The translations under genes were made by a program, and so were the position numbers. Below, piece after piece: positions 11,531 through 47,420 of a DNA stretch of 64,000 nt. The first letter of the stretch is position 1, and each line of letters starts with the position of its first letter. The notes beneath the pieces were generated by a model. The model was not told the DNA's origin. It saw only the letters and a list, made by a program, of their open reading frames with translations, and did not search any database. This DNA comes from an uncultured Gammaproteobacteria bacterium (GTDB lineage Bacteria > Patescibacteriota > Microgenomatia > UBA8517), in assembly GCA_964430475.1 (NCBI GenBank), contig CAYSEQ010000002.1, forward strand, positions 71,706-135,705, in the 5' to 3' direction.

Positions 11531-11534
11531 AGAC

Positions 11535-11936
11535 TTAAGGTTTTATTGGTGGTCTAAACTTGTATCCGTAGATGATTATACCTTTTTCCCCGTCTGTCTT
11601 AAGTTTTCTTGTTACCATCTCAACAGGCATTCCTATTCTTGGCTCCCCTTCCAAGTCTGTCAATTGAGCAGTAGTCATTGGTCCTTCCTCAAGTTTTATT
11701 AGGGCAAGGTAGTATGGTGTTTGTTCCTCGAATCCTTGAGGTGGATCTTCTTTCAGAAAAGTATAGGAATATACCGTACCTTTCCCACTTAACCTCACAG
11801 CCGGTGTTTTAACTTCTTCTTTACATTCAGGGCAAACATCTCTAGGGGGGAAGATTGTCTTACCGCATTGGCTACAACTTTCTCCGATAAGATTGTATCT
11901 TTTTTCTGTTAATCTCCAATGCCTGGGAATTTCCAT
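11535..11936 (-). CDS. Zn-ribbon plus OB-fold protein (DUF35 family)
   Basis: N-terminal CxxC...CxxC ribbon (CSQCGKTIFPPRDVCPECK) followed by an OB-fold region, as in DUF35 proteins. 133 aa. Confidence 0.65.
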   Translation of the reverse strand: MEIPRHWRLTEKRYNLIGESCSQCGKTIFPPRDVCPECKEEVKTPAVRLSGKGTVYSYTFLKEDPPQGFEEQTPYYLALIKLEEGPMTTAQLTDLEGEPRIGMPVEMVTRKLKTDGEKGIIIYGYKFRPPIKP

Positions 11937-11992
11937 AATCTTTAATATCTAGAATAAAAGAAAGATTTTATCAAAAACTCTCAAATTCTGCC

Positions 11993-15714: not shown

Positions 15715-15802
15715 GATTGCTTATTTAAGATATTTTTGTTGTAGTAAAAGTGTCAGTTGATCCTTTTATAAATTTTAAGTAGTGAGCTTATTTTTACTGC
15801 TT

Positions 15803-22305: not shown

Positions 22306-22316
22306 AATAATCCTTG

Positions 22317-29437: not shown

Positions 29438-30931
29438 ATGGCGAATATAAATTTTAATGACCACTTGGATTCTACTAACGAGATGACTTTAGAAATGGTA
29501 AAAATGCGTGCTCTAAAAGGTGTTTTAGTCTTAACAGGACGAACTTTCTTTTTAAATGCACTTTCATTTTTCGCAACACTATTGCTGACTATATTTCTTG
29601 AACCGAAAGACTTTGGGATTTTCTGGATAGTCTCAGCGGTTGTAAATTTTTTGGCTTATTTTTCAGATATAGGTCTTGCAGCTGCCTTGATTCAAAAAAG
29701 GAAAAGGGTTACTTATGAGGAGTTAAAGACTACTTTTACAATACAAGAAGGGTTGGTTCTTTCCCTTTCTTTAGGAGTTCTTGTTATAACCCCCTTTTTG
29801 CAGGAGCATTATCATTTGTCTAAAGAAGGAACGATGCTTCTTTGGGCACTTCTTTTTTCGTTTGTCTTATCATCGCTAAAGACCATTCCATCCGTACTTT
29901 TAGAAAGAGAGCTTAAATTTACGACGCTTGTAATTCCTCAAATTTTGGAAAATTTAAGCTACAATATCACCTCGGTTATTTTAGCTTGGAAGGGCTTCGG
30001 TATTAGTAGTTTTACATATGCGGTAGTTATACGCGGTGTAGTGGGATTAGCCTCAATGTATATCCTTAAGCCCTGGAGACCTGGGATTTCTTTGAATAGA
30101 AGTGCTTTAAAAAGACTTTTAAGTTTTGGCTTGCCTTATCAAGCCAACACCTTACTTGCGGTTATAAAAGATGATGGTATGACATTGGTGCTGGGTTCGA
30201 TTCTAGGTGCCAATGGCGTAGGTCTTTTGGGATGGGCCCAAAAATGGGCCTATATGCCCTTAAGGCTTTTTATGGATCATGTCTTAAAAGTCACCTTTCC
30301 AGCTTTTAGTAGAATTCAAGCTAAGAAAAAAGAATTAAGTTCAGCAGTTTCCCTATCCATCTTTTTTATTTGCTTTCTTGTATTTCCGACAACAGCAGGT
30401 CTTTTAGTGGTTGCACCTACTCTTATTGAGATTGTACCGCGTTATGAGAAGTGGAGGCCGGCTTTACTAGTCCTTAGTCTGGTGAGTGTCAACACATTTT
30501 TTGCTGCCTTTACCACACAACTTACCAATTTACTCAACGCTATCGGCAAAATTAGATTGACATTTAAGTTAATGTTGATGTGGACAATTTTAACCTGGAT
30601 CCTGGTTCCAACATTAGGAAAATTTTATAACCTCAACGGAGCAGCACTTGGCTATGCAATTGTTGGATTAAGTTCAGTGGTTGCGTTTTATGTATCTTAC
30701 AGAATCCTAAAATTTGATTTCTTGAAAAGTGTGGGTATTCCAGGAGTTGCAACCTTCATAATGGTGTTGGTTTTAATAGGAATTAAAACTTTTCTCAAAC
30801 CTAACTTTTTATCGGTAGTGATTATTTCAATTTCAGGCTTAATTATTTATCTTGGGGTTATGTATATTTTAGCTGGAAGTTTTTTTGTCAAAAACCTTAA
30901 GAAAGGATTGGATACCATTTTTCGTAAATGA
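29438..30931 (+). CDS. Wzx-like oligosaccharide/polysaccharide flippase (MOP superfamily, Polysacc_synt)
   Basis: 497 aa with about 12-14 TM segments. The N-terminal cytoplasmic helix, IFWIVSAVVNFLAYFSDIGLAAALIQ and the central loop are consistent with the Polysacc_synt family. Confidence 0.7.
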   Translation: MANINFNDHLDSTNEMTLEMVKMRALKGVLVLTGRTFFLNALSFFATLLLTIFLEPKDFGIFWIVSAVVNFLAYFSDIGLAAALIQKRKRVTYEELKTTFTIQEGLVLSLSLGVLVITPFLQEHYHLSKEGTMLLWALLFSFVLSSLKTIPSVLLERELKFTTLVIPQILENLSYNITSVILAWKGFGISSFTYAVVIRGVVGLASMYILKPWRPGISLNRSALKRLLSFGLPYQANTLLAVIKDDGMTLVLGSILGANGVGLLGWAQKWAYMPLRLFMDHVLKVTFPAFSRIQAKKKELSSAVSLSIFFICFLVFPTTAGLLVVAPTLIEIVPRYEKWRPALLVLSLVSVNTFFAAFTTQLTNLLNAIGKIRLTFKLMLMWTILTWILVPTLGKFYNLNGAALGYAIVGLSSVVAFYVSYRILKFDFLKSVGIPGVATFIMVLVLIGIKTFLKPNFLSVVIISISGLIIYLGVMYILAGSFFVKNLKKGLDTIFRK

Positions 30932-32712: not shown

Positions 32713-34437
32713 ATGTTAAAAAAAATTAAAGCTTTTCTACACATCAAAGAGAATTTTTGGCTTTTTCTTCTTATAATTTCCGGTTCTTTGACTTGGTCTT
32801 TAGTAATGTTTAAAAGCGGTCTTGTCTTTTCTTACGGTATGGGATTTTGGGGTCCTAATGCTCATGATGGTGTTTGGCATATTGCTTTGGCAAAAAGTTT
32901 AGCTAAGGGTTCATGGGAGATGCCGATTTTTGCTGGTGAAAAAATAAAAAATTATCACATCGGATTTGATCTTATTCTTGCAGTGATCCATAAAATAACA
33001 TTTATTCCAATACACAACCTTTATTTCCAAATTCTGCCCCCGATATTTAGCGTTTTAGTTGGTGTTCTCGTTTATCTTTTCGTCTATAGGTGGCAACGAT
33101 CTAAAATCAAGGCTTTTTGGTCTTTGTTTTTTGTTTATTTTGGAGGGAGTTGGGGTTGGGTTATAAGTTTGATAAGGAACGGGAGATTGGATGGTGAATC
33201 GATGTTTTGGTCTCAACAATCAATCTCTACCCTTCTTAATCCCCCCTTCGCCCTTTCTTTGATTCTAATTTTCTTAGGATTTCTGTGTTTAAAGATTGGC
33301 CTAGATAAGAGTGATGTTAAATTTTTGACTGTTGCAGGCTTCCTTTTCGGAATTCTTTCCCAGATTAAGGTGTATGCTGGAATACTCATCCTTCTTAGTC
33401 TTTTTTTGGGAGGAATTTATGACTTACTGAAGAAAAGGAGTACAAATCTTATCAAGGTGTTTACAAGTAGTTTGGTCGTTTCTATTTTGCTTTTCCCTTC
33501 GGTAGATTTGGAAGCTGAACAATTAGTAGTATTTAAACCGTTTTGGTTTTTGGAAACTATGATGCTTTTTCCTGACAGGTTGGGATGGACCAAGTTTGGC
33601 GAAGCAATGATTAACTATAAGCTTGGAGCGATTTGGAGTAAGGCAATTTTAGCTTATGTTTTAGCCCTTCTTATATTTTTAGTGGGAAACATGGGTACCA
33701 GGATAGTTTCTTTCTTCGGATTATTAAAATGGATATCGAGAGGAAAGCCTACCCCTTCCAACTACAAATACATCGATGTATTGGTAATTACGATGTTGGT
33801 TCTGGGGATTTTCTTTCCATTGATGTTTGTTCAGTCAGGAACGCCTTGGAATACTATCCAATTTTTTTATTATGCCTTAGTCTTTTCAGGGATTCTGGCG
33901 GGGATTGTGATGGGCGAGTCTATCCAACACTTACGGTCAAACCTAATGAAGTATTTTTTGGGTATTAGCATAATTTTTTTCACAATACCTACTACGGTTG
34001 GCACTTTATGGTTTCATTATTTACCCTCAAGACCACCCGCAAAGATTTCAAACGAGGAACTTGAGGCTCTAGAATTTCTTTCGAAAGAACCTGACGGAGT
34101 GGTTTTGACTTTGCCGTTTGATAAAAAATATTCTGATGCATGGGTAGTTCCGCCATTACCCATTTACCTTTACGAATCAACCGCGTATGTATCTGCATTT
34201 ACAGGGAAGGCAGTGTATTTTGAAGATGAAGTCAATTTGAGAATAATTGGTTATAATTTTGGGGAGAGGAGGAAAGGGGTCGAAGAATTTTTCTTAAATC
34301 CCAACGCTGATTTTCTGCGTGAGAACAAAATCACCTACATTTACATACCCAAAAATTTAATAAAAAACAGTTTAGAAAATATCGGATTAGAAAAAATTTT
34401 TGAGAATAAAGAAGTGGTCATCTATACTAACTTATAA
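32713..34437 (+). CDS. unknown polytopic membrane protein (candidate novel GT-C or polymerase/ligase-like)
   Basis: About 575 aa with at least 12 TM segments. Distinctive loop FWGPNAHDGVWHIALAKSL. No match to the other three families. ATG at 32713; the ORF track begins at TTG 32686. Confidence 0.4.
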   Translation: MLKKIKAFLHIKENFWLFLLIISGSLTWSLVMFKSGLVFSYGMGFWGPNAHDGVWHIALAKSLAKGSWEMPIFAGEKIKNYHIGFDLILAVIHKITFIPIHNLYFQILPPIFSVLVGVLVYLFVYRWQRSKIKAFWSLFFVYFGGSWGWVISLIRNGRLDGESMFWSQQSISTLLNPPFALSLILIFLGFLCLKIGLDKSDVKFLTVAGFLFGILSQIKVYAGILILLSLFLGGIYDLLKKRSTNLIKVFTSSLVVSILLFPSVDLEAEQLVVFKPFWFLETMMLFPDRLGWTKFGEAMINYKLGAIWSKAILAYVLALLIFLVGNMGTRIVSFFGLLKWISRGKPTPSNYKYIDVLVITMLVLGIFFPLMFVQSGTPWNTIQFFYYALVFSGILAGIVMGESIQHLRSNLMKYFLGISIIFFTIPTTVGTLWFHYLPSRPPAKISNEELEALEFLSKEPDGVVLTLPFDKKYSDAWVVPPLPIYLYESTAYVSAFTGKAVYFEDEVNLRIIGYNFGERRKGVEEFFLNPNADFLRENKITYIYIPKNLIKNSLENIGLEKIFENKEVVIYTNL

Positions 34438-34611: not shown

Positions 34612-35511
34612 GTGGGGAAGATTTCAGTTGTCGTAAATACTTTAAACGAGGAAAAAAATTTAGGACGGGCTCTTTCTTCCGTAAAGAATATCGCCGATGA
34701 GATTGTGGTGGTAGACATGAACTCAACCGATAGGACTCTTGAGGTTGCCAAGGAATTTGGTGCGAGAATTTTCAAACATGAAAGAACAGGATATGTTGAA
34801 CCAGCAAGAAATTATGCGATAAGTAAGGCAAATAACGAATGGATTTTAATTCTTGATGCCGATGAAGAAGTTCCTGATAGCCTATCCCAAAAGATTAAGA
34901 GTATTGTTGAGAACCCTCAAGCTGACTATTTTAGAATTCCGCGTAAAAATATTATCTTTGGAAAGTGGATAAAGCACTCACGCTGGTGGCCGGATTACAA
35001 TATAAGACTTTTTAGAAAAGGGTATGTTTCTTGGAGCGAGATTATCCATTCTGTTCCAACAACTAAAGGTGTTGGATTAGATTTGGAACCTGAGGAAAAT
35101 AACGCCATAATACATTACAACTATCAGAAAGTTGAGCAATATATAGAGCGGTTAAATCGCTATACCACAGTTCAAGCCAAAAATAAACTTAACGAAGGCT
35201 ACAAATTTCAACTTAGTGATTTGATAAGGAAACCCTTTAATGAATTTTTGGGAAGATTTTTTGAAGGTGAAGGTTATAAAGATGGGTTGCATGGTTTCGC
35301 TCTAGCGGTATTACAATCTTTTTCGGAGTTTATCGTTTACCTTAAATTGTGGGAAATGCAGGGGTTTAAGGAAGAGCCCTTTGAACTTGAAGGGGTGATA
35401 GCGGAGTTTAAAGAGGCTGAATCCGATCTCCACTATTGGGAATCTGACGCTCTTCTTAAGAAAGTAGGAAGTTTGAAAGAGAGAATTAAGAGAAAATTTA
35501 AACTTTACTAA
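34612..35511 (+). CDS. GT2 glycosyltransferase, WaaE/KdtX-like
   Basis: GTG start. ISVVVNTLNEEKNL...VVVDMNSTDRT...ILDADEE. C-terminal tail ...YLKLWEMQG is shared with 36553 and 63029. Confidence 0.75.
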   Translation: MGKISVVVNTLNEEKNLGRALSSVKNIADEIVVVDMNSTDRTLEVAKEFGARIFKHERTGYVEPARNYAISKANNEWILILDADEEVPDSLSQKIKSIVENPQADYFRIPRKNIIFGKWIKHSRWWPDYNIRLFRKGYVSWSEIIHSVPTTKGVGLDLEPEENNAIIHYNYQKVEQYIERLNRYTTVQAKNKLNEGYKFQLSDLIRKPFNEFLGRFFEGEGYKDGLHGFALAVLQSFSEFIVYLKLWEMQGFKEEPFELEGVIAEFKEAESDLHYWESDALLKKVGSLKERIKRKFKLY

Positions 35512-35567
35512 CTTTAATTTAGATAACATCGTATAAGCATATTCCCGAAGAGTTACACAAGTAGAAG

Positions 35568-36512
35568 ATGAGAGTATCTATCGTAATTCTGAATTGGAAT
35601 AGACCAAAAGATACCATTGATTGTTTGGAAAGCATTTGTGAGATGTCTTTTTTGGGTCTTTATCCAACAGTAGTGTTGGTGGATAACGCTTCGACAGATG
35701 ATTCCTTGGATAAAATAAGAAATTGGGCTTCAAAAAGGTTTTCGACACAAGAAAGTCTAGGTAAAAGGTTAGAGTTTAAAATACTAAAAAATAAAGAAAA
35801 TCTGGGTTTTGCACAAGGTAATAATGTCGGAATTTTGTACTCTTTGGAGAGAAAAAGTGATTTTATTTTGTTGATAAATAATGACACCTATACAGATAAA
35901 AATATGCTTAAGTATCTTCTTGATACAGCAAAGGTTAATTCAAGAGTAGGAGCTATTTCCCCGAAAATCTATTTTGCCAAAGGTTATGAGTTTCATAAAG
36001 GAAGATATAGAAAGTCGGAGCTAGGACGGGTTATTTGGTATGCAGGGGGAAATTTAGACTGGGACAATGTCTTGGGTTTAAATCGTGGAGTCGATGAAGT
36101 TGATCATGGCCAGTATGATGAAATTTCGGAGACTGATTTTGCAACAGGGGCTTGTATGCTTTTAAGATCTACTGCCTTGAGAGAGGTTGGACTTTTCGAT
36201 CAAAGATACTTTATGTATTTTGAAGATGTTGATCTTTCTCAGAGGTTAAAAGCGGTTGGCTGGAAAGTGATGTATGATTTCAGAGCAAAGTTGTGGCACA
36301 AAGTTGCCCAAAGCTCAAAAATAGGTGGTGATCTTAATGACTACTTTATTACAAGAAATCGACTTTTGTTTGGGTTTAAGTATGCCAGACCTAGGACAAA
36401 ATTAGCAATACTTAAAGAAAGTTTTCGAATTTTGTTTTCAGGTAGAAGGTGGCAAAAAAGGGGAGTCATCGACTTTTATCTTAGGAGATTGGGCAAAGGA
36501 AGGTGGAGTTAG
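35568..36512 (+). CDS. GT2 glycosyltransferase (DxD type, rhamnosyl/hexosyltransferase-like)
   Basis: VSIVILNWNR...VLVDNASTDDS...GFAQGNN...INNDT...YFEDVDLSQR. Confidence 0.8.
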   Translation: MRVSIVILNWNRPKDTIDCLESICEMSFLGLYPTVVLVDNASTDDSLDKIRNWASKRFSTQESLGKRLEFKILKNKENLGFAQGNNVGILYSLERKSDFILLINNDTYTDKNMLKYLLDTAKVNSRVGAISPKIYFAKGYEFHKGRYRKSELGRVIWYAGGNLDWDNVLGLNRGVDEVDHGQYDEISETDFATGACMLLRSTALREVGLFDQRYFMYFEDVDLSQRLKAVGWKVMYDFRAKLWHKVAQSSKIGGDLNDYFITRNRLLFGFKYARPRTKLAILKESFRILFSGRRWQKRGVIDFYLRRLGKGRWS

Positions 36513-36552
36513 AAGTTAGTCTTATTACTTTTTAAAGGAGAGTTTTATTAAA

Positions 36553-37320
36553 ATGCTAATTTCGGCTATCATTATTGCCAAAAACGAGGAGAAGAAAATA
36601 AAGGACTGTCTTTCTTCTATTAAGAAACTTTGTGATGAAGTAATTTTAGTGGATTCGGGTTCAGAAGATAAGACTTTAGAGATTGCAAAGAAATTTGAAG
36701 CTCATGTTTATAAGTCAGAAACGAACAATTTCAGTAGGTTGAGAAATGAAGGTTTAAAACATGCGAAGGGGGTTTGGGTTTTATACATAGATGCCGACGA
36801 GAGAATAACGCCGGAACTTGCTGAAGAAATATTGGAAAAGATTAAGGATGAGGGATCAGGTGGCAGTAATATTTTTGCCTATGCTATTCCAAGGAGAAAC
36901 TTTATTTTAGGAAAAGAATTAAAATATGGTGGATGGTGGCCTGATTATGTTAAAAGGCTATTTAAAAAAGAAAAACTTAAAAAATGGGTTGGGGAATTAC
37001 ATGAAGAGCCAATTTTTGATGGAAATTTGGGACTTCTAAAAAATCCCCTTCTGCATATTAAGCACGATAACCTTGAGGATATGGTTGTCAAAACCAATGC
37101 TTGGTCGGAAATAGAGGCAAAATTGATGTATAAGGCAAGGCATCCGAAAATGAACATCTTCCGTTTTTGTTCTGCTGTCTTTCGGGAATTTTGGCTTAGA
37201 TTTATTAAAGAAAAAGCCTTTCTCGATGGCAAAGTGGGTATAATCTATGCGGTGTATCAGGTTTATAGTAAATTTTTCTCTTATGCCAAACTTTGGGAGA
37301 TGCAACTTAAGCAAAAGTGA
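36553..37320 (+). CDS. GT2 glycosyltransferase, WaaE/KdtX-like (paralog of 34612)
   Basis: ISAIIIAKNEEKKI...ILVDSGSEDKT...IDADER...AKLWEMQ. Confidence 0.75.
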   Translation: MLISAIIIAKNEEKKIKDCLSSIKKLCDEVILVDSGSEDKTLEIAKKFEAHVYKSETNNFSRLRNEGLKHAKGVWVLYIDADERITPELAEEILEKIKDEGSGGSNIFAYAIPRRNFILGKELKYGGWWPDYVKRLFKKEKLKKWVGELHEEPIFDGNLGLLKNPLLHIKHDNLEDMVVKTNAWSEIEAKLMYKARHPKMNIFRFCSAVFREFWLRFIKEKAFLDGKVGIIYAVYQVYSKFFSYAKLWEMQLKQK

Positions 37321-37351
37321 ATGAGATGATATTTTTAGAAAAGTAAAAAAA

Positions 37352-38377
37352 ATGAAAGCTGGAATTTTTAATCCGTATCTAGATACTTTAGGTGGTGGTG
37401 AAAGATATACGCTATCTTTAGCGCGTGTTTTGTTGGAGAATGGATTTGATGTTGATATTCAATGGGAAAACCCTTCAATTAAAATTAAGCTAAAAGAAAG
37501 GTTTGGCATTGATGTGAGTGGAATACGCTTTGTTAAAGATATAAAAAGGGGCGATGGTTACGATGTATGTTTTTGGGTTTCAGATGGAAGTATTCCTCTT
37601 TTGAAGGCAAGGAAAAACTTTCTACATTTTCAGGTTCCTTTTAAGGATGTGGGGGGCAAAACTCTTCTCAATAGGATGAAGTTATTTAGGATTGATAAAG
37701 TAATAGTTAATTCAAAATTTACTAAGAAGTTTATTGATAAAGAATATGGGGTAGACAGTGTTGTGGTATATCCTCCTGTCCCTGTAGATAAAATAAAGGC
37801 TAAGAGAAAGGAGAAGTTGATCATTTATGTGGGGCGTTTTTCTTCTTTGGCTCAGTCGAAAAGACAGGATGTTTTGATTAAAGCTTTCAAAAAACTTTAC
37901 AACATTGGTTTTAAGGATTGGAGAATGATTTTAGCTGGTGGGGTGGAAGTGGGAGTAAAAGATGAACTGAGGAGTTTGAAAACAAAATCTGAAGGGTATC
38001 CAATTGAAATTTTAGAAAGCCCCTCCTTCGAGACGCTAAAAGAGCTTTACGGAAAAGCAAAGATTTTTTGGTCAGCAGCGGGATTTGGCATAGATGAGGA
38101 TAAGTGCCCTCAGAAAGTAGAACATTTTGGAATTACAGTCGTTGAGGCTATGGCTGCTGGGGTTGTCCCTATAGTCTACGAAGCGGGTGGGCCAAAGGAA
38201 GTTATTAAAAATGGGGAAAATGGTTTCCTGTGGAGGAAAGAATCTCAGTTGATAAGGATTACTAGCGATTTAATTAAAAATCCTTCTACCTTGTTTTCTA
38301 TATCTAAGAAAGCAAGAGAGGAAAGCGGAAACTATAGTTATGAGAAATTTAAAGAAAGTTTTACAAAACTTCTTTAA
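37352..38377 (+). CDS. GT4 (GT-B fold) glycosyltransferase
   Basis: C-terminal domain EHFGITVVEAMAAGVVPIV...G.ENG matches the GT4 EX7E-type motif. 341 aa. Confidence 0.85.
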   Translation: MKAGIFNPYLDTLGGGERYTLSLARVLLENGFDVDIQWENPSIKIKLKERFGIDVSGIRFVKDIKRGDGYDVCFWVSDGSIPLLKARKNFLHFQVPFKDVGGKTLLNRMKLFRIDKVIVNSKFTKKFIDKEYGVDSVVVYPPVPVDKIKAKRKEKLIIYVGRFSSLAQSKRQDVLIKAFKKLYNIGFKDWRMILAGGVEVGVKDELRSLKTKSEGYPIEILESPSFETLKELYGKAKIFWSAAGFGIDEDKCPQKVEHFGITVVEAMAAGVVPIVYEAGGPKEVIKNGENGFLWRKESQLIRITSDLIKNPSTLFSISKKAREESGNYSYEKFKESFTKLL

Positions 38378-40772
38378 GAAGGTTTTTCCTCTTTTTTTAA
38401 TTTCAATCTCAATAGCTCTCTTTTTTTGGAAATTTTTCATCAAAGGCTATATTCCTATACCAGCTGATTTTGTTGTTGGGACCTATTACCCTTGGCTTGA
38501 CTATAAATGGGGTTACGAGGTTCAAGTTCCTGTAAAAAACCCAATAACAGCCGATGTTGTTTCCTTTTCATTTCCAGTCCAAAACTTAGCTATAGATCTT
38601 CTTAAGAAAAAAGAAATGCCTTTATGGAATCCTTATATTTTATCTGGTACTCCTCTTCTTGCGAATTTTCAATCTGCTCCTTTTGCCATCAACAATATTT
38701 TTTATGTTTTTTTTAAAACAGAGACAGCCTGGAGTTTAAAGATTATATCTCAACATTTTTTAGTAGCCCTTTTTACCTACCTTCTTTTAAGGTATTGGAA
38801 AGTTAGTAAATTTTCTTCTTTTTTGGGTGGCGTTCTTTTTGCTTTTTCGGGGTTTAATACAATTTGGTCTCAGTGGGGTGTTCACACACTTTCTTCTTCT
38901 TTTATTCCCCTTATTATTCTATTTTTGGATAAATATCTAAAGAGGAAGAAATTAAATGATTTGTTGTTCTTTTCCCTTTCTATTTTTTTACAAATTCTTT
39001 CTGGTTATCCCCAGTTGGTTTTGTATTCGTTTATTGCCATTCTTACACTTTTATTAGTAAGGTTTAGAAAAGAAAGAGAATTTTTGATAGGTGTTTTTGG
39101 AGTAATAACCTTTTTTATTTTTGGAATTTTACTTTCTTCTTTTCAACTTCTTCCAGCGTGGGAGCTTCTTGCTCTTTCTCAAAGAAAGGTTGAGTTTCTT
39201 GAATTTTCATCTGCATTTTTACCTTGGGCTAAGGTGATAACTTTTATAGCACCAGATTTTTTTGGTAATCCGTCAACTAGGAATTACTGGGGACCAACAG
39301 ATTACACAACTACTACTGGATTTGTGGGAGTTACCTCCTTTATATTAGCTTTTGCCGGTTTGTCTTCACTTAAGCAAAAAAGAGAAGTTCTTTTTTCAGG
39401 TTTGGTTGCTTTATTTTCATTGATTATCTCTTTTCCTACACCTTTGGCGATTCTTATTAGAAATTCACACCTTTTAGGTTTGCAAGCAGCTTCAGCTCAT
39501 AGAGCTTTAGTCCTTTTTAATTTCGCTATCTCTTGCTTAATGGCTTTTGGAATAGATTATCTTTCAAGGAAAAAGGTGAAGATTCTAAGAGTAATTTTTT
39601 TGACGGGTGTTTTGCTTCTTGCTTTTGGTGTTTATGCTCTTTTGGGCTATTTTAGCAGCAATCTGGATATCTTTCAGGGTTTAGTAGTATTTCCCAAGAA
39701 AGAAATGCTTTTTGTTTCTCTTAGGAATCTTGCTATACCAAACTTTTGTTTTTTTCTAACTCTTATTTTCTTGCTTATTTCCAACAAGAATTTATTGGGT
39801 TTTAGAAAGATTGCCCCCTTTTTGTTGTCTCTGCTTATTTTTTTGGAAGTTTTTAGATTTTTTGATAAGTTTACCCCCTTTTCTAAAAAAGAAATTTTTT
39901 ATCCCAGAACTCCTGTCTTAGACTTTCTTATTGACAAGATGGAAAAGGAAGGACCTTTCAGGGTTACAACAGAAGGAGTTATTCCAATTAACATCAAGAT
40001 GGTCTATAAAATAGAATCCCTAGAGGGCTATGATGCAGTTTATCCATTAGACATTGCAAAGTTTATAGCTGTAGTAAATAGTTTAAATCCAGAAGTAACG
40101 CCTCAAGGAAGGTATGCTTCTGTTTCTAATGTTAACTCGCATCTTCTAGACCTTGCTAATACGAGGTATTTTTTGGGATTGAAAGTTGGCCAAAAAGGAA
40201 ACTCTGAAAAAGAAGGAAATGTGGAATCAAGATTTAATTCAAAAAAGTTCTTAAAGGTATATGAAGATAAAACAACTGTTGTTCTTGAAAATAAGGATTT
40301 TTTACCAAGAGCTTTTGTTGTCTATGATTGGGAAGTGGTACCAAAAAGAGGTGAGATCTTAGAAAGGCTTGTTGATAAAAGTTTTCCTTTCAGAGAAAAA
40401 ATTCTCTTAGAGGAAGAGCCTAGAATTTTTTTGTCAAAAGAAAAATATCTTTCCCCAAGTGTTGATTACGAATTTTATTCAGCCCAAAAAAGTGTAATAA
40501 AAGTTAATTCTTCAAAAGAGGGTTTGCTTTTTGTTTCAGATCTTTTTTATCCCGGTTGGAAAGCCTTTGTTAATGAAAAGCCGGTAAGGATATTAAAAGC
40601 AAATTATGCTTTTAGAGCTGTTCCTATTCCTAAAGGAGAATCAAAAGTGATGTTTATTTATATTCCAGATTCCTTTAAAATAGGATTGTTTTTGTCAGGG
40701 TTCACTTTTATTTTTTTGTTAAGTTTATTGTTTTATGAATCAGTATTTCAAAAAGGCAGAAGAGCTTCATAA
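38340..40772 (+). CDS. YfhO-like GT-C membrane glycosyltransferase candidate (large, 810 aa)
   Basis: More than 14 TM segments. The C-terminal SDLFYPGWKAFVNEKPVRILKANYAFRAV resembles the YfhO-family C-terminal signature. Confidence 0.6.
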   Translation: MRNLKKVLQNFFKKVFPLFLISISIALFFWKFFIKGYIPIPADFVVGTYYPWLDYKWGYEVQVPVKNPITADVVSFSFPVQNLAIDLLKKKEMPLWNPYILSGTPLLANFQSAPFAINNIFYVFFKTETAWSLKIISQHFLVALFTYLLLRYWKVSKFSSFLGGVLFAFSGFNTIWSQWGVHTLSSSFIPLIILFLDKYLKRKKLNDLLFFSLSIFLQILSGYPQLVLYSFIAILTLLLVRFRKEREFLIGVFGVITFFIFGILLSSFQLLPAWELLALSQRKVEFLEFSSAFLPWAKVITFIAPDFFGNPSTRNYWGPTDYTTTTGFVGVTSFILAFAGLSSLKQKREVLFSGLVALFSLIISFPTPLAILIRNSHLLGLQAASAHRALVLFNFAISCLMAFGIDYLSRKKVKILRVIFLTGVLLLAFGVYALLGYFSSNLDIFQGLVVFPKKEMLFVSLRNLAIPNFCFFLTLIFLLISNKNLLGFRKIAPFLLSLLIFLEVFRFFDKFTPFSKKEIFYPRTPVLDFLIDKMEKEGPFRVTTEGVIPINIKMVYKIESLEGYDAVYPLDIAKFIAVVNSLNPEVTPQGRYASVSNVNSHLLDLANTRYFLGLKVGQKGNSEKEGNVESRFNSKKFLKVYEDKTTVVLENKDFLPRAFVVYDWEVVPKRGEILERLVDKSFPFREKILLEEEPRIFLSKEKYLSPSVDYEFYSAQKSVIKVNSSKEGLLFVSDLFYPGWKAFVNEKPVRILKANYAFRAVPIPKGESKVMFIYIPDSFKIGLFLSGFTFIFLLSLLFYESVFQKGRRAS

Positions 40773-41388
40773 AAAGGTTCCTCCCAATTGGTATTTTCAA
40801 TCTCTTAAGATAGATCTGCTACAAAGGTTTTGGCATAAGACAAGATTTAATGAAGTTGAAAAAGTGTTAGAAATTACAAAGGGAGTAATTCTTGATGTGG
40901 GGAGTGCTGATGGAGTTTTTACACATTTTATTCTTGAAAAAACAAAAGCAAGAAAGATAGTAGGTATAGATGTCCTAAGACCTTCGGTGGAATGGGCTAG
41001 GAAACACTGGAAAGATAAAAGAATGGAATTTAAAGTCGGTGATGCTCATGAGTTGAATTTTAAAAACGAGAGTTTTGATGCTGTATTTTGTTTAGAAGTC
41101 TTGGAACATGTCCACAATCCTAAAAGGGTTTTAAAAGAATTTAGAAGGGTTTTGAAAAGGGGAGGTTATGGGGTGTTTTTAGTACCTAGTGACAGTCTTC
41201 TTTTTAGAGTAATCTGGTGGCTGTGGCTTCATTTTTATCCTAGAGGTTGGGTATGGAGAGATACACACATTCAAACTTATAGAAATAATTATTTAACAAA
41301 GATTTGCAAGGAAGCCGGTTTTAAAATAGAGATAGACAAGAAATTTAATTTAGGCATGCTTCATTTGATAAAAGTTAGGAAGGACTAA
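40735..41388 (+). CDS. class I SAM-dependent methyltransferase
   Basis: Motif I ILDVGSADGVF, post-I acidic GIDV and motif II/III region FDAVFCLEVLEHV...LKRGG. Confidence 0.8.
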   Translation: MNQYFKKAEELHKKVPPNWYFQSLKIDLLQRFWHKTRFNEVEKVLEITKGVILDVGSADGVFTHFILEKTKARKIVGIDVLRPSVEWARKHWKDKRMEFKVGDAHELNFKNESFDAVFCLEVLEHVHNPKRVLKEFRRVLKRGGYGVFLVPSDSLLFRVIWWLWLHFYPRGWVWRDTHIQTYRNNYLTKICKEAGFKIEIDKKFNLGMLHLIKVRKD

Positions 41389-41397
41389 GGGGTTATT

Positions 41398-42309
41398 ATG
41401 AGAGAAACAATAAAAGATAAAAAAGTATCTATTATCATTCCAAATTTTAATGGTCGGGAGCTTTTGGAAAAGAATTTACCCAGTGTTATAAAAGCTAAAA
41501 AATATGTGCCAAATAGGATACTCGAGGTTATTGTTGTAGATGACGCATCAAGGGATGACAGTTGGGAGTTTGTTAAAAAGAACTTTTCTGAAGTAAAGTT
41601 AATAAGACATAGGGAAAATAGGGGGTTTTCTGCATCTGTTAACACAGGAGCAAGAGCGGCGAAGGGTGAAATTTTAGTCCTTTTAAATTCAGATGTCTCT
41701 CCCACAAGAGATTTTTTGGTTGAGGCAATTAGACACTTTAATAATGAGAATGTCTTTGGAGTTTCATTCCATGAGAAAGGTTTCAGTTGGGCAAGAGGGA
41801 AATTTAGCGATGGGTTTATCGTACACGAAAGTGGGAAAAATGATGGCAAAGTGCATGAAACATTTTGGATTAGTGGTGGAAGTGGAGCTTTTAGGAGACG
41901 CTATTGGATGGAGCTTGGGGGGATGGATGAGAAACTTTTCTCGCCATTTTATTGGGAGGATGTCGATATTTGCTATAGAGCTCAAAAAAGAGGTTGGATC
42001 TGCCTTTGGGAACCAAATTCTTTAGTTTATCACATGCATGAGGCAACCATAGGAAAATTAAATTTAAATTTTAGAAAAAGAATTCAAGAAAAAAATCAAC
42101 TTATTTTTATTTGGAAGAATCTTACCTCACCTGTACTTTTTCGTAAGCACTTGTTGGGTCTTTTGAAAAGGATTTACAAAAATCCCGGTTATATTAGGAT
42201 TCTTATTTTGGCAATTTCAAAAGTTAGGCTCATATTAAAAGCAAGAAAAAAAGAAAAAAAACAGGCTAAGATTTCAGATGAGTCAATTTTTGCTAGGTTT
42301 GCAAGTTAA
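41398..42309 (+). CDS. GT2 glycosyltransferase (DxD type)
   Basis: VSIIIPNFNG...VVDDASRDDS...LNSDVSP...YWEDVDICYR. Confidence 0.8.
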   Translation: MRETIKDKKVSIIIPNFNGRELLEKNLPSVIKAKKYVPNRILEVIVVDDASRDDSWEFVKKNFSEVKLIRHRENRGFSASVNTGARAAKGEILVLLNSDVSPTRDFLVEAIRHFNNENVFGVSFHEKGFSWARGKFSDGFIVHESGKNDGKVHETFWISGGSGAFRRRYWMELGGMDEKLFSPFYWEDVDICYRAQKRGWICLWEPNSLVYHMHEATIGKLNLNFRKRIQEKNQLIFIWKNLTSPVLFRKHLLGLLKRIYKNPGYIRILILAISKVRLILKARKKEKKQAKISDESIFARFAS

Positions 42310-42322
42310 GTATAACCTTTTT

Positions 42323-43156
42323 ATGTTGGATGTTTCTGTCATCATAGTTAGTTTTAATACCAAGGAATTAACTATCAAGTCTGTTAGATCAGTTTTGGGT
42401 GAGGGTTCAGATCTTAGTAAAGAGATAATAGTAGTGGACAATGCTTCAGATGATGGTTCACTAGAGGCATTATCTAGGATGAAGGATGAATATAAAAAAT
42501 CAAAGATAGGGATTAAGATTATAAAAAATCGTAAGAATTTAGGTTTTGCGAAGGCCAATAATCAGGGAATAAAGGTCGCAAAAGGGGAATATATTTTTCT
42601 TTTGAATTCGGACGCTTTACTTAAGAAGGGTTCACTTAGTAAACTCGTCAGTTTTGCAAAAGAAAGACCAGATGCGGGTGCTGTGGGACCAAGGCTTTTG
42701 AATCCTGACGGAACAACCCAAGCTTCAGCCTTTCGTTTTCCAGGCATCTTTCGTGCTATAAGGCAATACTGGTTAGGGGAAAAGGGACTTTTGGATAAGT
42801 ATATTCCGGAGACTAAAAATCAAGAGGCTACCAAAGTTGAATCATTAGTAATGGCAGCATTTTTAATTACCCCAAAAGCGTTGAAGGAAGTCGGGTTATT
42901 GAACGAGAGATATTTTATGTATTTTGAGGATTTAGACTATTGCAAAAGAATTCGGAAAAAGGGATTGAGTGTTTATTATCTGCCTACGGCAGAAGTTATA
43001 CATTACCACGGTGCAAGTGGAAAGAGATTATCAAATCAAGATAATCAGTGGAGACGCCTTATTCCATCAAGTAAAATTTACCATGGTATGTTTAAACATT
43101 ATCTTATAAATTTCATTATATGGTCAGGACAGAAATGTCAAAGAGTTTTTCATTAA
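42323..43156 (+). CDS. GT2 glycosyltransferase (DxD type, paralog of 35568 and 41398)
   Basis: VSVIIVSFNTKE...IVVDNASDDGS...GFAKANNQG...LNSDALL...YFEDLDYCKR. ATG at 42323 is preferred over the ORF-track start 42278. Confidence 0.8.
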   Translation: MLDVSVIIVSFNTKELTIKSVRSVLGEGSDLSKEIIVVDNASDDGSLEALSRMKDEYKKSKIGIKIIKNRKNLGFAKANNQGIKVAKGEYIFLLNSDALLKKGSLSKLVSFAKERPDAGAVGPRLLNPDGTTQASAFRFPGIFRAIRQYWLGEKGLLDKYIPETKNQEATKVESLVMAAFLITPKALKEVGLLNERYFMYFEDLDYCKRIRKKGLSVYYLPTAEVIHYHGASGKRLSNQDNQWRRLIPSSKIYHGMFKHYLINFIIWSGQKCQRVFH

Positions 43157-44874
43157 TCTCAAAAGTTCCGCTTATTTTTTTGATTTTAATATTGGCATTT
43201 TTGCTAAGGTTCATAAAAATTGAATCTGTCCCTGTATCTCTTTTTTCCGATGAGTTAGATGTTGGGTACCATGCGTATTCTTTAATCAAAACAGGTAAAG
43301 ATTACATGGGTCATAAACTTCCCTTGTACTTCGAGTCCTATTCTGATTTTAGAACTCCATTTTTAATTTATTCTGCGGTTCCAAGCGTATTTTTGTTTGG
43401 TATTTCACCTTTAGGTGTACGCTTGCCTGCCATTTTATTTGGCACTTTTGGTGTTTTAGTATTTTATTTACTTGTCGCCGAAATTTTTAGAGGTGAAGAT
43501 AGGAGAAAAACCAACTTAATGGCATTAGTAGCCGCTTTTGTATTAGCGGTTAGTCCCTGGCACATCCAATATTCTAGGGCAGGATTTGAAGCTACGGCAT
43601 TGGTTTTTTTTCTTTTACTTGGATTATATTTTTTTTTCAAGGGTGTAGATGATGAAAGATATCTCTTACTCTCGGCTTTATCCTTTGGAATCACTGTTTG
43701 GATATATAGCACGGCAAAACTTTTTACACCGATTTTAACTATTTTCCTTTTTTGGATTTATAAAAGAAATATCCTTCAGGTTTCTAAAAAGACTTTAATC
43801 TATAGCTTTCTAATTCTTGGTCCTTTTTTTGTTCCAATGGTTTACTTAACTTTTAGGGGTGGGGGAAATCAAAGATTTAACTATATAAGCGTTTTCACCG
43901 ATCCAGCTATAGAGGGAGAGATGTCTTTTCAAAGGCTTATCGATGCCCAGTTTGAAGGACCTCAAAGAAATCTACTTCAAAAAATAACCTCAAGACTTAT
44001 ACACAATAAATATTCATATTGGATTTCTAAAATTGTTCAAAATTACTTTGAGACATTTTCAATGCAGTTTTTATTTATGAAAGGGGATTTAAATTTAAGA
44101 CATTCGCCTGAGGGGATTGGACAATTTTATAAGATAGAAGTGATACCGTTACTTCTTGGATCTGCCTTATTTTTTCTAAATTTTAGCGATAGAAAATTTA
44201 AAAAGCTCTTGGCCCTTTGGATTTTTGTAGGAGCTTTACCTTCCGCGATTACTCGTGATGGTGGTCATCATGCAACGAGGCTGATTTTAATTCTTCCGCC
44301 ATTAATCATTCTTATTTCTTATGGAATTGTACAAACTTCCTTTCTTTTTAAAAACTTGAAATTAAGGATTATTTTTTGGGGGACTTATTTTTCTATATTT
44401 AGTATTTTATTTTTTCTTTATCTTCACACATTGTTTGTTCATAATCCTTGGTACTCTGAACGCTATTGGCATGCAGGATACAAGGAAATGATTGAGTCAT
44501 TAAAGGTTTTGGAAGAGAGGTATCAAAAGATCATTATCACAAACGCCTTAGACCAGCCTTATATTTTCCTTGCAGCTTATTACCCTATTCCTCCTGAAAT
44601 TTGGCAAAGAGGTTTTGAGGAGGAATATGTAGAGGGTTTTGGGGAACTTAGGAGAATAGACAAATTTTATTTTGGTCAGGTGGGTGAAGAGGGCATAAGT
44701 GTACTGGCAAATTTTTTGGATGAGAAAACGCTGTATGTCGCAGCTGAAAGAGAGGTTGGTGCCAATTTGATATTGGAACCCCAAAAAACTCCTAAAGGTC
44801 TTAAACTTGTTAAGGCAATTTCTTATCCTTCGGGAGAGCCGGCATTTTATCTTTTTGAAAAGGAAAGATCATGA
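43135..44874 (+). CDS. ArnT/PMT_2-like GT-C glycosyltransferase (array copy 1)
   Basis: FSDELDVGYHAYSLIKTGKDYMGH...DFRTPFLIY and SPWHIQYSRAGFEAT. C-terminal domain ITNALDQPYIFLAAYYPIPPE...SYPSGEPAFYLFE. Confidence 0.65.
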   Translation: MSKSFSLISKVPLIFLILILAFLLRFIKIESVPVSLFSDELDVGYHAYSLIKTGKDYMGHKLPLYFESYSDFRTPFLIYSAVPSVFLFGISPLGVRLPAILFGTFGVLVFYLLVAEIFRGEDRRKTNLMALVAAFVLAVSPWHIQYSRAGFEATALVFFLLLGLYFFFKGVDDERYLLLSALSFGITVWIYSTAKLFTPILTIFLFWIYKRNILQVSKKTLIYSFLILGPFFVPMVYLTFRGGGNQRFNYISVFTDPAIEGEMSFQRLIDAQFEGPQRNLLQKITSRLIHNKYSYWISKIVQNYFETFSMQFLFMKGDLNLRHSPEGIGQFYKIEVIPLLLGSALFFLNFSDRKFKKLLALWIFVGALPSAITRDGGHHATRLILILPPLIILISYGIVQTSFLFKNLKLRIIFWGTYFSIFSILFFLYLHTLFVHNPWYSERYWHAGYKEMIESLKVLEERYQKIIITNALDQPYIFLAAYYPIPPEIWQRGFEEEYVEGFGELRRIDKFYFGQVGEEGISVLANFLDEKTLYVAAEREVGANLILEPQKTPKGLKLVKAISYPSGEPAFYLFEKERS

Positions 44875-46166: not shown

Positions 46167-46190
46167 GCAAGAAACCAAGCCGTGAATTTT

Positions 46191-47420
46191 ATGAGTAAAA
46201 AAGGGATATTTGTTTTAGCTATCTTTGTTTATTTTCTGATTTCCCCTTTAACCTATCATCCAGATATAAAAACAATCTTTTATCTTTCCCAATTTCTTTC
46301 CAAGGGAATTTTAAATATTTATTCTTATTTGGAAACGACTCCAAGTGTTGCACAACTGGGGCAATTCGTATATCCTCCGCTTGCTTATATTTTTTACGGT
46401 ATTTTATTTGTTCCAGTTAAATTTATTGCGGGAGAAGGTTTTTCTACCTGGCTGGCTATGGGGAATGATGAGATCAACCACGCGCATATTTTCCGATACC
46501 TTTTTTTGATGAAACTTCCGGGAATATTGTTTCTTTTACTTACAGGTTATCTTTTATCTAGTTTTATTAAGGATGAAAAACAAGGAAGACTTGCTTTAAT
46601 TTTATGGTTTTTTAACCCTGTAAGTCTTTATGTAGTGGGTTTAATGGGTCAAATTGACATCGTACCTACTTTCATAACATTTCTTTCCCTTTTTTATCTA
46701 AATAAAAATCCTTATTTTTCGGCTTTCTTTTTGGGTTTAGGGGCTAGCTTTAAAACATATCCTTTAATCCTTATTCCTTATACTTCACTTCTTGTGCGAA
46801 AGACTTGGAAACATAGATTGTTAATTAGTATTTGCGGTTTTTTAACATTTATTTTTCTTATATTTCCTTTTGTCAAAACCCCGGCATTTTATCATGCAAG
46901 CTTGGTTTCAGGACTAACTAAAAGAATTTTTGAGCTGAAAATGTCGGTCGGATTTGAGGAGTATATCTTGATTTTACCGACAATACTTTTTCTGCTTCTT
47001 ATTTTAAGTTCATCGAAAAAATTTGGAGAAACTAAGAAATCCTTTGTTTATTTTTTCGGTGTCACCTTTTACTTGTTTTCGGGTTTGCATTTTCATCCCC
47101 AGTGGGCAATGTGGAGTATTCCATTTTTGATTTTAAGTGTTTTGGATTTTGTTCTTAGAAAAGAGGGTGATATCGTGTTATCAACAATCCTTTTTTTCTT
47201 GGGGTGGATTGGTGTTTTAGTACTTTATGATGATAAATTTTTGACATGGGGAATTTTGTCTCCTTTAGATCCAGGGGTTCTTTTTTTGCCCACCTTAAGT
47301 AGCTTTCTTAAGCCGTTTGTTGAACCGAATTTACTAAAAAGTGTTTTTCATAGTCTTATTCTTACCTCAGGTTCTTGGGTTTTTTTAAGAAGTTTGATTA
47401 ATAATGCAAAGATTAAATAA
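46191..47420 (+). CDS. PIG-V/DUF2029-like GT-C membrane glycosyltransferase candidate
   Basis: FVYPPLAYIFYG and VVGLMGQIDIV. Polytopic. An alternative GTG start lies at 46182. Confidence 0.45.
   Translation: MSKKGIFVLAIFVYFLISPLTYHPDIKTIFYLSQFLSKGILNIYSYLETTPSVAQLGQFVYPPLAYIFYGILFVPVKFIAGEGFSTWLAMGNDEINHAHIFRYLFLMKLPGILFLLLTGYLLSSFIKDEKQGRLALILWFFNPVSLYVVGLMGQIDIVPTFITFLSLFYLNKNPYFSAFFLGLGASFKTYPLILIPYTSLLVRKTWKHRLLISICGFLTFIFLIFPFVKTPAFYHASLVSGLTKRIFELKMSVGFEEYILILPTILFLLLILSSSKKFGETKKSFVYFFGVTFYLFSGLHFHPQWAMWSIPFLILSVLDFVLRKEGDIVLSTILFFLGWIGVLVLYDDKFLTWGILSPLDPGVLFLPTLSSFLKPFVEPNLLKSVFHSLILTSGSWVFLRSLINNAKIK

Follow-up and report, generated by a model that had tools for sequence, protein, structure and literature searches.

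How can a bacterium build an envelope glycan from a locus which encodes a Wzx flippase and a series of soluble glycosyltransferases (GTs) but in which neither a priming transferase nor a Wzy polymerase is found? This question is raised by a 64,000-nucleotide stretch of DNA (contig CAYSEQ010000002.1, positions 71,706 to 135,705; hereinafter, the window) from a genome placed by GTDB in the class Microgenomatia and, in particular, by its segment 34612-43156. It is argued here, with moderate confidence, that this segment is the cytoplasmic-assembly half of an envelope-glycan operon conserved in the Microgenomatia, within the candidate phyla radiation (CPR, Patescibacteria).

The proposed pathway would comprise the following steps: (i) six soluble nucleotide-sugar-dependent GTs (two WaaE/LgtF-family GT2s, three EDxD-type GT2s and one GT4) would extend a lipid-linked primer into a short oligosaccharide at the inner face of the membrane; (ii) the S-adenosylmethionine (SAM)-dependent methyltransferase at 40735-41388 would methylate the chain; (iii) the Wzx at 29438 would flip the lipid-linked oligosaccharide outward; (iv) the GT-C protein at 32713-34437 would transfer the chain en bloc to an acceptor, be it an envelope protein or a wall polymer; and (v) the YfhO enzyme, together with ~20 other GT-C proteins of the window, would add further single sugars outside the cell, using as donors the polyprenyl-phosphate monosaccharides made by four Dpm1/ArnC-like GT2s. 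Wzy and Wzz would not be needed, because the product would be a defined oligosaccharide or a decorated glycan, and not a polymerised repeat unit.

CPR bacteria are almost wholly uncultivated and their envelope chemistry is essentially unknown. In this case, a lineage with genomes of ~1 Mb spends ~50 kb on glycan machinery, with a class-conserved cassette at its centre. The main outcome is a class-wide conserved CPR glycan cassette centred on Wzx and on an unannotated family of GT-C proteins resembling oligosaccharyltransferases (OSTs); a search of the literature on GT-C arrays, oligosaccharyltransferases and mannosyltransferases in CPR, Patescibacteria, Woesebacteria and Microgenomates returned nothing relevant. 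The six soluble GTs, the methyltransferase, Wzx and the OST-like GT-C make up a testable gene set for heterologous reconstitution.

Gene content of the block and its conservation

Gene content was established from the 51 open reading frames (ORFs) of at least 100 amino acids (aa) in the window (G+C ~34%), which were scanned against Pfam with a report threshold of E<=0.01. By their Pfam domains, the genes of 34612-43156 correspond to five soluble GT2s, one GT4, one SAM-dependent methyltransferase and one YfhO-family membrane GT. The block and its immediate partners are as follows:

29438-30931, + strand: Wzx/MOP-family flippase, 497 aa, ~11 transmembrane segments, Polysacc_synt_3 E 1.6e-50
32713-34437, + strand: unannotated membrane protein of predicted GT-C fold, 574 aa, gene call P0121 (mechanical ORF start at 32686)
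34612-35511, + strand: WaaE/LgtF-family GT2, 299 aa, Pfam GT2 E 1.8e-24, with a ~45-aa extra C-terminal extension
35568-36512, + strand: soluble GT2 of the WbbL/rhamnosyltransferase-like and MftF-like clade, 314 aa, Pfam GT2 E 1.6e-12
36553-37320, + strand: WaaE/LgtF-family GT2 of canonical length, 255 aa, Pfam GT2 E 7.2e-26
37352-38377, + strand: GT4 (GT-B fold, retaining type), 341 aa, Glycos_transf_1 E 1.4e-23, Glyco_transf_4 E 2.6e-8
38340-40772, + strand: YfhO-family GT-C, 810 aa, ~10 transmembrane segments, PF09586 E 1.2e-26
40735-41388, + strand: class I SAM-dependent methyltransferase, 217 aa, Methyltransf_11 E 3.5e-23
41398-42309, + strand: soluble GT2, MftF-like, 303 aa, Pfam GT2 E 2e-25
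42278-43156, + strand: soluble GT2, WbbL/rhamnosyltransferase-like, 292 aa, Pfam GT2 E 4e-26
43120-44874, + strand: PMT_2/ArnT-like GT-C, conserved downstream neighbour, 584 aa, PMT_2 E 3.4e-10

No transmembrane segments are predicted in the seven soluble GT and methyltransferase proteins of the block. A preliminary description of this DNA had thus listed its GT2s, GT4 and methyltransferase correctly, but had left out the 10-segment YfhO protein, which passes the gathering score of PF09586 (93.8 vs 28.5 bits, with residues 114-661 covered) and whose gene overlaps each neighbouring gene by 38 nucleotides (nt). The same description had also recognised Wzx, which in NCBIfam matches the PRK10459 MOP flippase (1.4e-40) and an O-glycosylation flippase (8.7e-30), both under cutoff. 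As for the three "DxD GT2s" (35568, 41398 and 42278), they do form a second group of GT2 paralogs, but their first motif is NND or NSD, and what they have in common is (Y/F)xxEDxDxxxR (MYFEDVDLSQR, FYWEDVDICYR and MYFEDLDYCKR, respectively). They show weak similarity to WbbL/rhamnosyltransferases and MftF, with profile matches under cutoff (TIGR01556 at 3.7e-14 for 35568 and 4.4e-21 for 42278; TIGR03965 at 1.2e-29 for 41398). To judge from its context only, the methyltransferase may carry out the O-methylation of a sugar.

Position 43156 had been taken as the end of the block, yet genes continue through overlaps and short gaps to 49663, starting with the PMT_2 GT-C at 43120, whose start overlaps the 42278 gene by 37 nt. 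All genes in 13361-49663 lie on the + strand, and the spacing between them ranges from -38 to +74 nt, bar one AT-rich gap of 174 nt before 34612. Promoter and terminator scans gave counts not above those of shuffled sequence, and Rfam and tRNA scans of the window gave no matches.

The window belongs to a Woesebacteria-like member of the Microgenomates. Conservation was studied by tblastn of the window proteins against 80 loci fetched around relatives of 36553. A recurring order emerges, with 35-62% amino acid identity: Wzx, the 32686-like gene (that of 32713-34437, named by its mechanical start), three GT2s, GT4, YfhO, methyltransferase, two GT2s and PMT_2. This cassette is present in ~22 loci, including those of Woesebacteria (L002, L003, L004, L084), Daviesbacteria (L007), Collierbacteria (L016), Levybacteria (L005, L008, L009) and other Microgenomates (L015, L018); L004 comes from a complete 0.9-Mb genome, and CP055307.1 is an example of a complete cassette-bearing genome. 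Wzx has a counterpart in the ~22 loci and the GT4 in all cassette loci; the synteny of 35568 is conserved; and YfhO occurs at the matching position in 11 cassette loci, in one to three copies each. In L002-L004, the equivalent positions hold orthologs of the methyltransferase (53-55% identical) and of the PMT_2 protein at 43120 (47-51%), and the cassettes of other loci carry different methyltransferases. Those ORFs of the cassette loci that have no homolog in the window encode extra methyltransferases, PMT_2 and DUF2079 proteins and housekeeping functions; there is no primer or Wzy among them.

The loci for O-antigens and capsules are hypervariable. A gene order conserved across several candidate lineages is unlike such loci, and hence the conventional O-antigen-like assembly line put forward in the preliminary description fits poorly. 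Conservation points instead to a cassette which builds a core envelope glycoconjugate of the class and not a strain-variable antigen.

Outside CPR, the WaaE-like GT2 is found without the cassette. Many loci of Chloroflexota/Anaerolineae and others (L030-L081) combine it with a 42278-like (WbbL-type) GT2 within 10 kb and have neither Wzx nor the rest of the cassette; the two GT2s may be a conserved two-GT module. Several GTDB loci labelled Gammaproteobacteria/Pseudomonadales (L013, L014, L017, L019-L021) have the CPR cassette as well; their bins have probably been given the wrong label.

The WaaE/LgtF-type enzymes and the candidate transferase beside the flippase

The window encodes three WaaE-like GT2s which, as previously noticed, are paralogs (~33% identity, E ~1e-42). 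Two of them lie inside the block, where all three had been counted, and the third lies well downstream:

63029-63934, + strand: third WaaE/LgtF-family GT2 paralog, 301 aa, Pfam GT2 E 1.4e-18, with a 45-aa insertion and the tail YFKFWQMA; 32-33% identical to 34612 and 36553

The protein encoded at 36553 has a DADE motif, a GFLDG motif and the tail SYAKLWEMQ. Its orthologs in Woesebacteria and Microgenomates are 57-69% identical, and every one of them ends in SYAKLWE(M/L/I)Q. More distant relatives were found by tblastn, in a "plasmids" collection where some records are mislabelled chromosomes: genes of Klebsiella, Proteus, Neisseria and Aeromonas which cover 91-93% of the query at 30-34% identity (E 1e-19 to 4e-30). 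In Klebsiella the gene is flanked by waaA and coaD, and in Neisseria it stands directly upstream of a GT4; from these positions we take them to be waaE and lgtF. Their records read only "glycosyltransferase family 2 protein" or carry no annotation. In a five-way alignment, 36553 is 31-32% identical to the Klebsiella and Neisseria GT2s over the full length, and 34612 can also be aligned full length. Residues D80, D82, E83, D225, G226, G229 and Y244 are invariant, and the common features are D-x-D-E, GFLDG..G and a terminal Y-x-(K/E)-L-(W/Y) helix. Therefore, the label "WaaE-like" holds, and the C-terminal tail, although real, is not unusual as had been thought: it is a signature of the WaaE/LgtF family, which ends in KYTELWALS in Klebsiella and KYVKLYYLY in Neisseria. 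The patterns YAKLWE[ML]Q and DADE recover at least 584 relatives in GTDB genomes of Nitrospirota, Chloroflexota, Verrucomicrobiota, Bacteroidota and other phyla.

Compared with the WaaE (Klebsiella, Proteus) and LgtF (Neisseria) beta-1,4-glucosyltransferases of the inner core of lipopolysaccharide (LPS), the window enzymes share the identity just given, a length of ~255 aa, the D(A/T)DE and GFLDG..G motifs and the C-terminal helix. They differ in number (three paralogs, of which one is extended and another carries an insertion), and the window has no genes for a heptose/Kdo lipid A core. The CPR host group is generally regarded as devoid of LPS, and so the acceptor would be another one than heptose I of the LPS inner core. 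In any case, WaaE/LgtF enzymes act on a lipid-anchored oligosaccharide at the inner leaflet, so a lipid-linked acceptor would fit here as well.

The AlphaFold2 (AF2) model of 36553 (pLDDT 93) consists of a GT-A core followed by three C-terminal helices, and in Foldseek it matches SunS/ThuS (1e-14) and then TarS/TarP. The best Protein Data Bank (PDB) sequence match of 34612 is GmaR (3.6e-16), over the GT-A core only. No structure of WaaE or LgtF is among the PDB matches of these proteins. The idea that the WaaE-like GT2s could themselves prime polyprenyl phosphate found no support: GtrB, DPMS and ArnC are not in the top 50 structural matches.

Two side observations concern these genes and their relatives. 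The gene of the third paralog is overlapped by 4 nt by 61740-63032, which encodes an FAD/NAD-binding protein of amine-oxidase fold (NCBIfam PRK07233, "hypothetical protein", 1.1e-114, above cutoff); the overlap suggests that oxidoreductase and GT2 are a coupled pair, and no 61740-like gene occurs in the 80 fetched loci. The other observation is that the plasmid collection includes whole chromosomes, for example of K. pneumoniae (CP125156.1, 5.37 Mb), Proteus mirabilis (4.08 Mb) and N. gonorrhoeae (2.17 Mb); statistics on plasmids drawn from it should allow for this.

The conserved partner of Wzx is the gene at 32713-34437, a candidate for the en bloc oligosaccharide transferase. As a rule, Wzx has a 32713-like gene as its immediate successor, as seen in L002, L004, L015 and L084 (in the last one, the two genes overlap by 4 nt). 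The protein has no paralog in the window and no Pfam or NCBIfam match even at E<=10; two profiles gave no PDB sequence match and, hence, no OST at the sequence level. The analysis defines a large family around it, labelled "hypothetical" throughout (so are all its named members), with at least 1,357 proteins when clustered at 90%, and with 1,558 representatives of clusters at E<=1e-3. The AF2 model, built from 36 sequences, has a pLDDT of 81.3 and a pTM of 0.86. When it was compared with the PDB by Foldseek, ranks 1-8 were all OST catalytic subunits (yeast and human STT3, PglB and AglB; E 1.9e-8 to 2.1e-6, TM-score ~0.5; STT3 6ezn_F at 1.9e-8, PglB 5ogl at 3.8e-7 and AglB 7e9s at 4.3e-7), followed by ArnT (9.4e-5), DPY19 and AftA; no Wzy or WaaL was matched. 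In turn, hhalign relates the family to the PMT_2-like paralogs of the window (probability 89.9%, E 1.7e-6).

The protein is thus predicted to adopt a GT-C fold, and the known structures nearest to it are those of OST catalytic subunits. The comparison with Wzy, WaaL, PglB and AglB that the preliminary description had proposed comes out in favour of PglB, AglB and STT3 as regards predicted fold, but with no OST match in sequence, and gives nothing for Wzy or WaaL. The WWDYG motif (W[WY]D[YWF]G) is absent from all frames of the window and the protein has no STT3 Pfam match; we would not assign it to the STT3/PglB/AglB family. Across 72 diverse family members, D52, H82, K219, N326, N380 and Q383 are invariant and R330 is near-invariant. 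D52 lies in the first external loop, after the first predicted transmembrane segment, with W55, H56 and N80 near-invariant; D86 is invariant only among close homologs.

Many relatives are longer (1000-1160 aa; proteins P0241, P0245, P0251, P0260 and P0261; loci L006, L007 and L016), with an N-terminal signal or transmembrane segment and a ~450-aa extracytoplasmic domain with the motifs VNPVRG..FW, GAWHIDA and DQYSTD.Y..WG, whose sole match is a weak one to DUF3863 (E 0.0015). The window copy lacks this domain, and no other window gene encodes it. A single 1639-aa ORF (P0280, a single-member cluster on an 8.8-kb Logan contig) joins a Wzx (Polysacc_synt_3 9.5e-55), the extracytoplasmic domain and a 32713-like GT-C: it is either a Rosetta-stone link between flippase and GT-C or an assembly or frameshift artefact. 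Finally, Levybacteria L008 has at 8361-9989, between its 35568-like and 36553-like GT2s, an unannotated 542-aa ORF with no Pfam match, a possible functional replacement for the 32686-like gene.

Priming of the chain and competing explanations

As the preliminary description had stated, the window ORFs hold no match at E<=0.01 to primer families (PF00953 of WecA/MraY; PF02397 of WbaP), Wzz or nucleotide-sugar enzymes, and none to Wzy: the one Wzy_C signal, in 53052-54749 (- strand), is sub-threshold (E 0.016; 15.5 vs 31.7 bits). Six-frame motif scans of the window for MraY/WecA and WbaP signatures were empty. Beyond the window, no primer, Wzy_C, Wzz or nucleotide-sugar gene was found either in the 9-kb upstream flank or, in 14 related genomes, in the 10 kb around the cassette, and motif scans were negative across all 1,855 ORFs of the fetched loci. 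A primer and a Wzy just outside the window, which were previously considered as the sign of an ordinary O-antigen-like locus, are both missing from the true upstream flank, i.e. the 9 kb of locus L001 that extend beyond its stretch of 100% identity to window positions 1-11664. The absence of primer, Wzz and sugar-nucleotide genes had been presented as noteworthy, but it is common in glycan loci: the primer gene often lies apart from the cluster, as wecA of Escherichia coli does from O-antigen clusters, and Wzy proteins often escape detection by profiles.

The protein at 53052-54749 (- strand; 565 aa, ~11 transmembrane segments) has only two homologs among 5.8 billion proteins and no PDB match. 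Over its last 190 residues it is similar to the C-terminal domains of the PMT_2-like paralogs, and its N-terminal transmembrane part gives weak DUF6057 (0.003) and Wzy_C (0.016) signals only. Given that weak match and two homologs, it is a tentative candidate for a Wzy or WaaL.

Two alternatives for the primer had been named: (i) an enzyme whose gene lies elsewhere, which would be of WecA/WbaP type and make a diphosphate-linked sugar; and (ii) the monosaccharide-P-lipid made by the Dpm-like GT2s, with a GT-C as the transferase of the product. They are still the right pair, and 22314 would be an example of a GT2 for the monophosphate route. Once the overall pathway is granted, the balance tips ever so slightly to the former, and the latter has gained support from (i) the OST-like fold predicted for the neighbour of Wzx; (ii) the Dpm1/ArnC-like GT2s in the same gene string; and (iii) the lack of a nearby primer or Wzy. 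The Dpm1-like enzymes of the window are as follows:

22314-23045, + strand: Dpm1/ArnC/PgfS-like GT2, 243 aa, no transmembrane segment, Pfam GT2 E 5e-34; heads a co-directional string with Wzx
13361-14074: Dpm1/ArnC-like paralog of 22314
19902-20681: Dpm1/ArnC-like paralog of 22314
9508-10656: Dpm1/ArnC-like paralog of 22314, fused to a GtrA/DPMS transmembrane domain

These proteins match DPMS, GtrB and ArnC over ~200 residues. For 22314, the PDB sequence matches are DPMS (5mlz, 1.2e-15), GtrB (5ekp, 2.9e-14) and ArnC (9bhc, 5.6e-14), over residues 8-211, and the NCBIfam matches, all under equivalog cutoffs, are PgfS (7e-24), ArnC (1.3e-19), PpgS (1e-18) and AglJ (2.8e-17). Three of them (22314, 19902 and 13361) share the + strand string with the flippase and the soluble GTs, and in Levybacteria (L005, L008 and L009) a 13361- or 22314-like GT2 stands immediately upstream of Wzx. 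Consequently, 22314 is a candidate donor synthase or monophosphate primer.

The monophosphate route had been called non-canonical, but it is experimentally established in Lactococcus (PMC10821137) and Haloferax (PMC3871713); with these precedents, it is plausible here and not without precedent. In the PSP (Wps) system of Lactococcus lactis/cremoris, WpsA/WpsB start the chain, cytoplasmic GTs elongate it, a Wzx-type protein flips it and GT-C enzymes handle it (PMC10821137). This system and the streptococcal GacI/J/K/L resemble the window in having a Dpm1-like GT2 in the locus, soluble GTs that elongate a lipid-linked sugar, a flippase of the Wzx type and transfer by GT-Cs outside the cell; no phosphoglycosyltransferase (PGT) is needed for the branch, and the side chains receive their monosaccharides from separate systems of a GT2 and a GT-C. 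By contrast, the window has no rhamnan backbone genes, no TagO and no sign of polymerisation; its GT-C partner belongs to an unrelated, unannotated family with an OST-like predicted fold; its CPR host has ~23 GT-C genes in 50 kb; and the monophosphate linkage would be assigned by analogy only. It also lacks a WpsB/GacJ-like small membrane activator: none adjoins 13361, 19902 or 22314, where the gene spacing leaves no room for it (upstream gaps of 213, 2 and 8 nt; downstream, a 19-nt overlap, a 31-nt gap and a 32-nt overlap, respectively, before the next genes, which are GT-Cs).

The Agl pathway of Haloferax volcanii offers the second parallel. AglJ, AglG, AglI and AglE act on dolichol phosphate, the methyltransferase and the OST are AglP and AglB, respectively, and the last mannose is added by AglD, AglR and AglS (PMC3871713). 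Its likeness to the window lies in an AglJ/Dpm1-type GT2 and further GTs acting on a monophosphate polyprenol, a SAM methyltransferase, a Wzx-like AglR/Agl15, en bloc transfer by AglB and a PMT-like GT-C (AglS) which adds the last sugar from a separate polyprenyl-P-sugar, all of them clustered. The differences are the bacterial host; a candidate transferase without WWDYG or any AglB/STT3 sequence match; GT2s which are WaaE/LgtF-like and WbbL/MftF-like, with NCBIfam scores far under the Agl cutoffs; and the lack of sugar-nucleotide genes. If single-phosphate priming were true for the window, the scheme known from Lactococcus and the haloarchaea would reach a third, deep-branching lineage. A bolder version, which is tentative and rather unlikely, is that the Microgenomatia run an en bloc pathway of archaeal/eukaryotic style, with Dpm1-like priming of polyprenyl monophosphate, soluble GTs and methyltransferase, Wzx and, at last, an OST-like GT-C without WWDYG acting on envelope proteins. 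In that case, the 32713 family would be a third type of bacterial oligosaccharyltransferase beside PglB and PglL.

Several points weigh against the pathway proposed at the outset. It rests on sequence and predicted structure. The OST-like assignment comes from one AF2 model and one Foldseek run with a TM-score of ~0.5, in which ArnT, DPY19 and AftA match too; the profile comparison ties the family to the PMT_2-like paralogs, and the OST sequence match, WWDYG and STT3 Pfam domain are all missing. The Levybacteria keep the cassette without a recognisable 32686-like gene, which means that not every cassette requires the enzyme. Among solved structures, the WaaE-like GT2s come closest to the peptide and protein GTs SunS, ThuS and GmaR. 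And flippases of the Wzx type can flip monosaccharide-P-lipids as well (GacK, cited in PMC10821137), so the window Wzx need not serve the GT block.

Among the competing explanations, an ordinary Wzx/Wzy-dependent repeat-unit polysaccharide (O-antigen, capsule or teichuronic-acid-like) is fairly unlikely. It would involve a WecA/TagO- or WbaP-type primer elsewhere in the genome, a divergent Wzy among 53052-54749, 46182-47420 and 11993-13147, and an attachment enzyme outside the window. Unlinked primers and undetected Wzy proteins, being common, agree with it, and so do the resemblance of this Wzx to colanic-acid and teichuronic-acid flippases, the weak Wzy_C match of 53052 and the presence of three unclassified membrane proteins; moreover, the searches covered the window, the upstream flank and the related loci, which leaves the downstream flank and the remaining genome as places for the genes sought. 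Nevertheless, the window shares only Wzx with that pathway, since the PGT primer, Wzy and Wzz were found neither in its 64 kb, nor in the 9-kb upstream flank, nor within 10 kb in the 14 related genomes. The window has no LCP-type ligase either, 53052 is too rare to be a conserved partner, the conserved partner of Wzx is a GT-C and not a Wzy-like protein, and cassette content and order are conserved in a way foreign to O-antigen and capsule loci. Quite improbable is a lipoglycan of the mycobacterial type (phosphatidylinositol mannosides, lipomannan, lipoarabinomannan), in which the GT4 and GT2s would glycosylate a glycerolipid at the inner face, and the product, once flipped, would be elongated outside by GT-Cs with polyprenyl-P-sugars from the Dpm1-like GT2s; being lipid-anchored, it would need no polyprenol primer, Wzy or ligase. 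As in mycobacteria (PimA/PimB', Ppm1, PimE, Mpt, Emb), the window combines a soluble GT4 and GT2s, four Dpm1-like GT2s and ~23 GT-C proteins, including the GT87-like 44871 and 28073, and the structures matched by 32713-34437 include AftA, AftB and Emb. However, the match of the GT4 to monoglucosyl-diacylglycerol synthase (2.9e-8) reaches only 33.5 of the 400 bits set as cutoff and does not surpass those to EpsE or BshA, the window has no phosphatidylinositol-related or acyltransferase genes, and a MOP/Wzx flippase with OST-like best matches beside it suits a polyprenol-linked oligosaccharide better.

It would be most surprising if the soluble GT2s had proteins or peptides as their direct cytoplasmic acceptors, in the way that GmaR glycosylates flagellin and SunS/ThuS glycosylate peptides, independently of the adjacent Wzx and GT-C. 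The solved structures closest to the WaaE-like GT2s are indeed those of GmaR (3.6e-16) and SunS/ThuS (1e-14), but that similarity is limited to the GT-A core (residues 5-188), whereas the GT2s at the Klebsiella waaE and Neisseria lgtF positions are homologous over the full length, C-terminal helices (three) and tail included; as the PDB matches hold no WaaE/LgtF structure, the ranking is biased. Translational coupling and conserved synteny with the Wzx, YfhO and PMT_2 genes also favour a single pathway.

The glycosyltransferase array around the block

Around the block, the 50 kb of 11993-61723 encode ~23 GT-C-type membrane proteins. Three paralog groups can be differentiated (a minus sign marks the - strand):

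30938, 43120, 47972, 49664-, 51457-, 54824, 56508, 58310 and 60053: PMT_2-like group, nine mutually alignable members
14056, 16873, 18424 and 20713: further members of the PMT_2-like group
23014, 24713, 26382 and 38340: PTPS_related/YfhO-like group
28073, 44871 and 46182: GT87-like group

One of them, 28073-29428, was tried as a Wzy and rejected, as it is a paralog of the GT87-like 44871 (30% identity, E 5e-33). Three of the Dpm1-like GT2s are followed by abutting or overlapping GT-C genes (13361+14056, 19902+20713 and 22314+23014). These pairs recall the three-component systems CsbB/YfhO, GtrB/GtrC and PgfS/PgfM, as do the YfhO member at 38340 and weak matches to PgfS and PgfM2. Unlike in those systems, there is no separate GtrA-type flippase in the window (the sole GtrA domain is part of the 9508 fusion), there are many more copies, and the pairs are embedded in a cassette with six soluble GTs and Wzx.

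The upstream flank (L001 11665-20714) is a second glycan-related cluster. Three of its proteins, of 435-542 aa, are unannotated; besides them, it encodes a PGA_cap protein, a FemAB-like Acetyltransf_6 protein, a 634-aa fusion of GT4 and PIG-L (deacetylase), and a 1178-aa fusion of GT2 and GT4. Divergent from the start of the GT array is the pair 11535-13147 (- strand), in which a DUF35/ChsH2-type zinc-ribbon and OB protein (11535-11936) adjoins an unannotated 384-aa multi-transmembrane protein (11993-13147). The latter was rejected as a PGT, with no motif or profile match (E<=10); its N-terminal loop "ANYDGPLFLVVAKTLY" ("NYDGPLF..Y") may be GT-C-like. Lastly, a DHH/DHHA1 phosphoesterase (NrnA/RecJ-like) is encoded at 15782-16798, between GT-C genes of the array.

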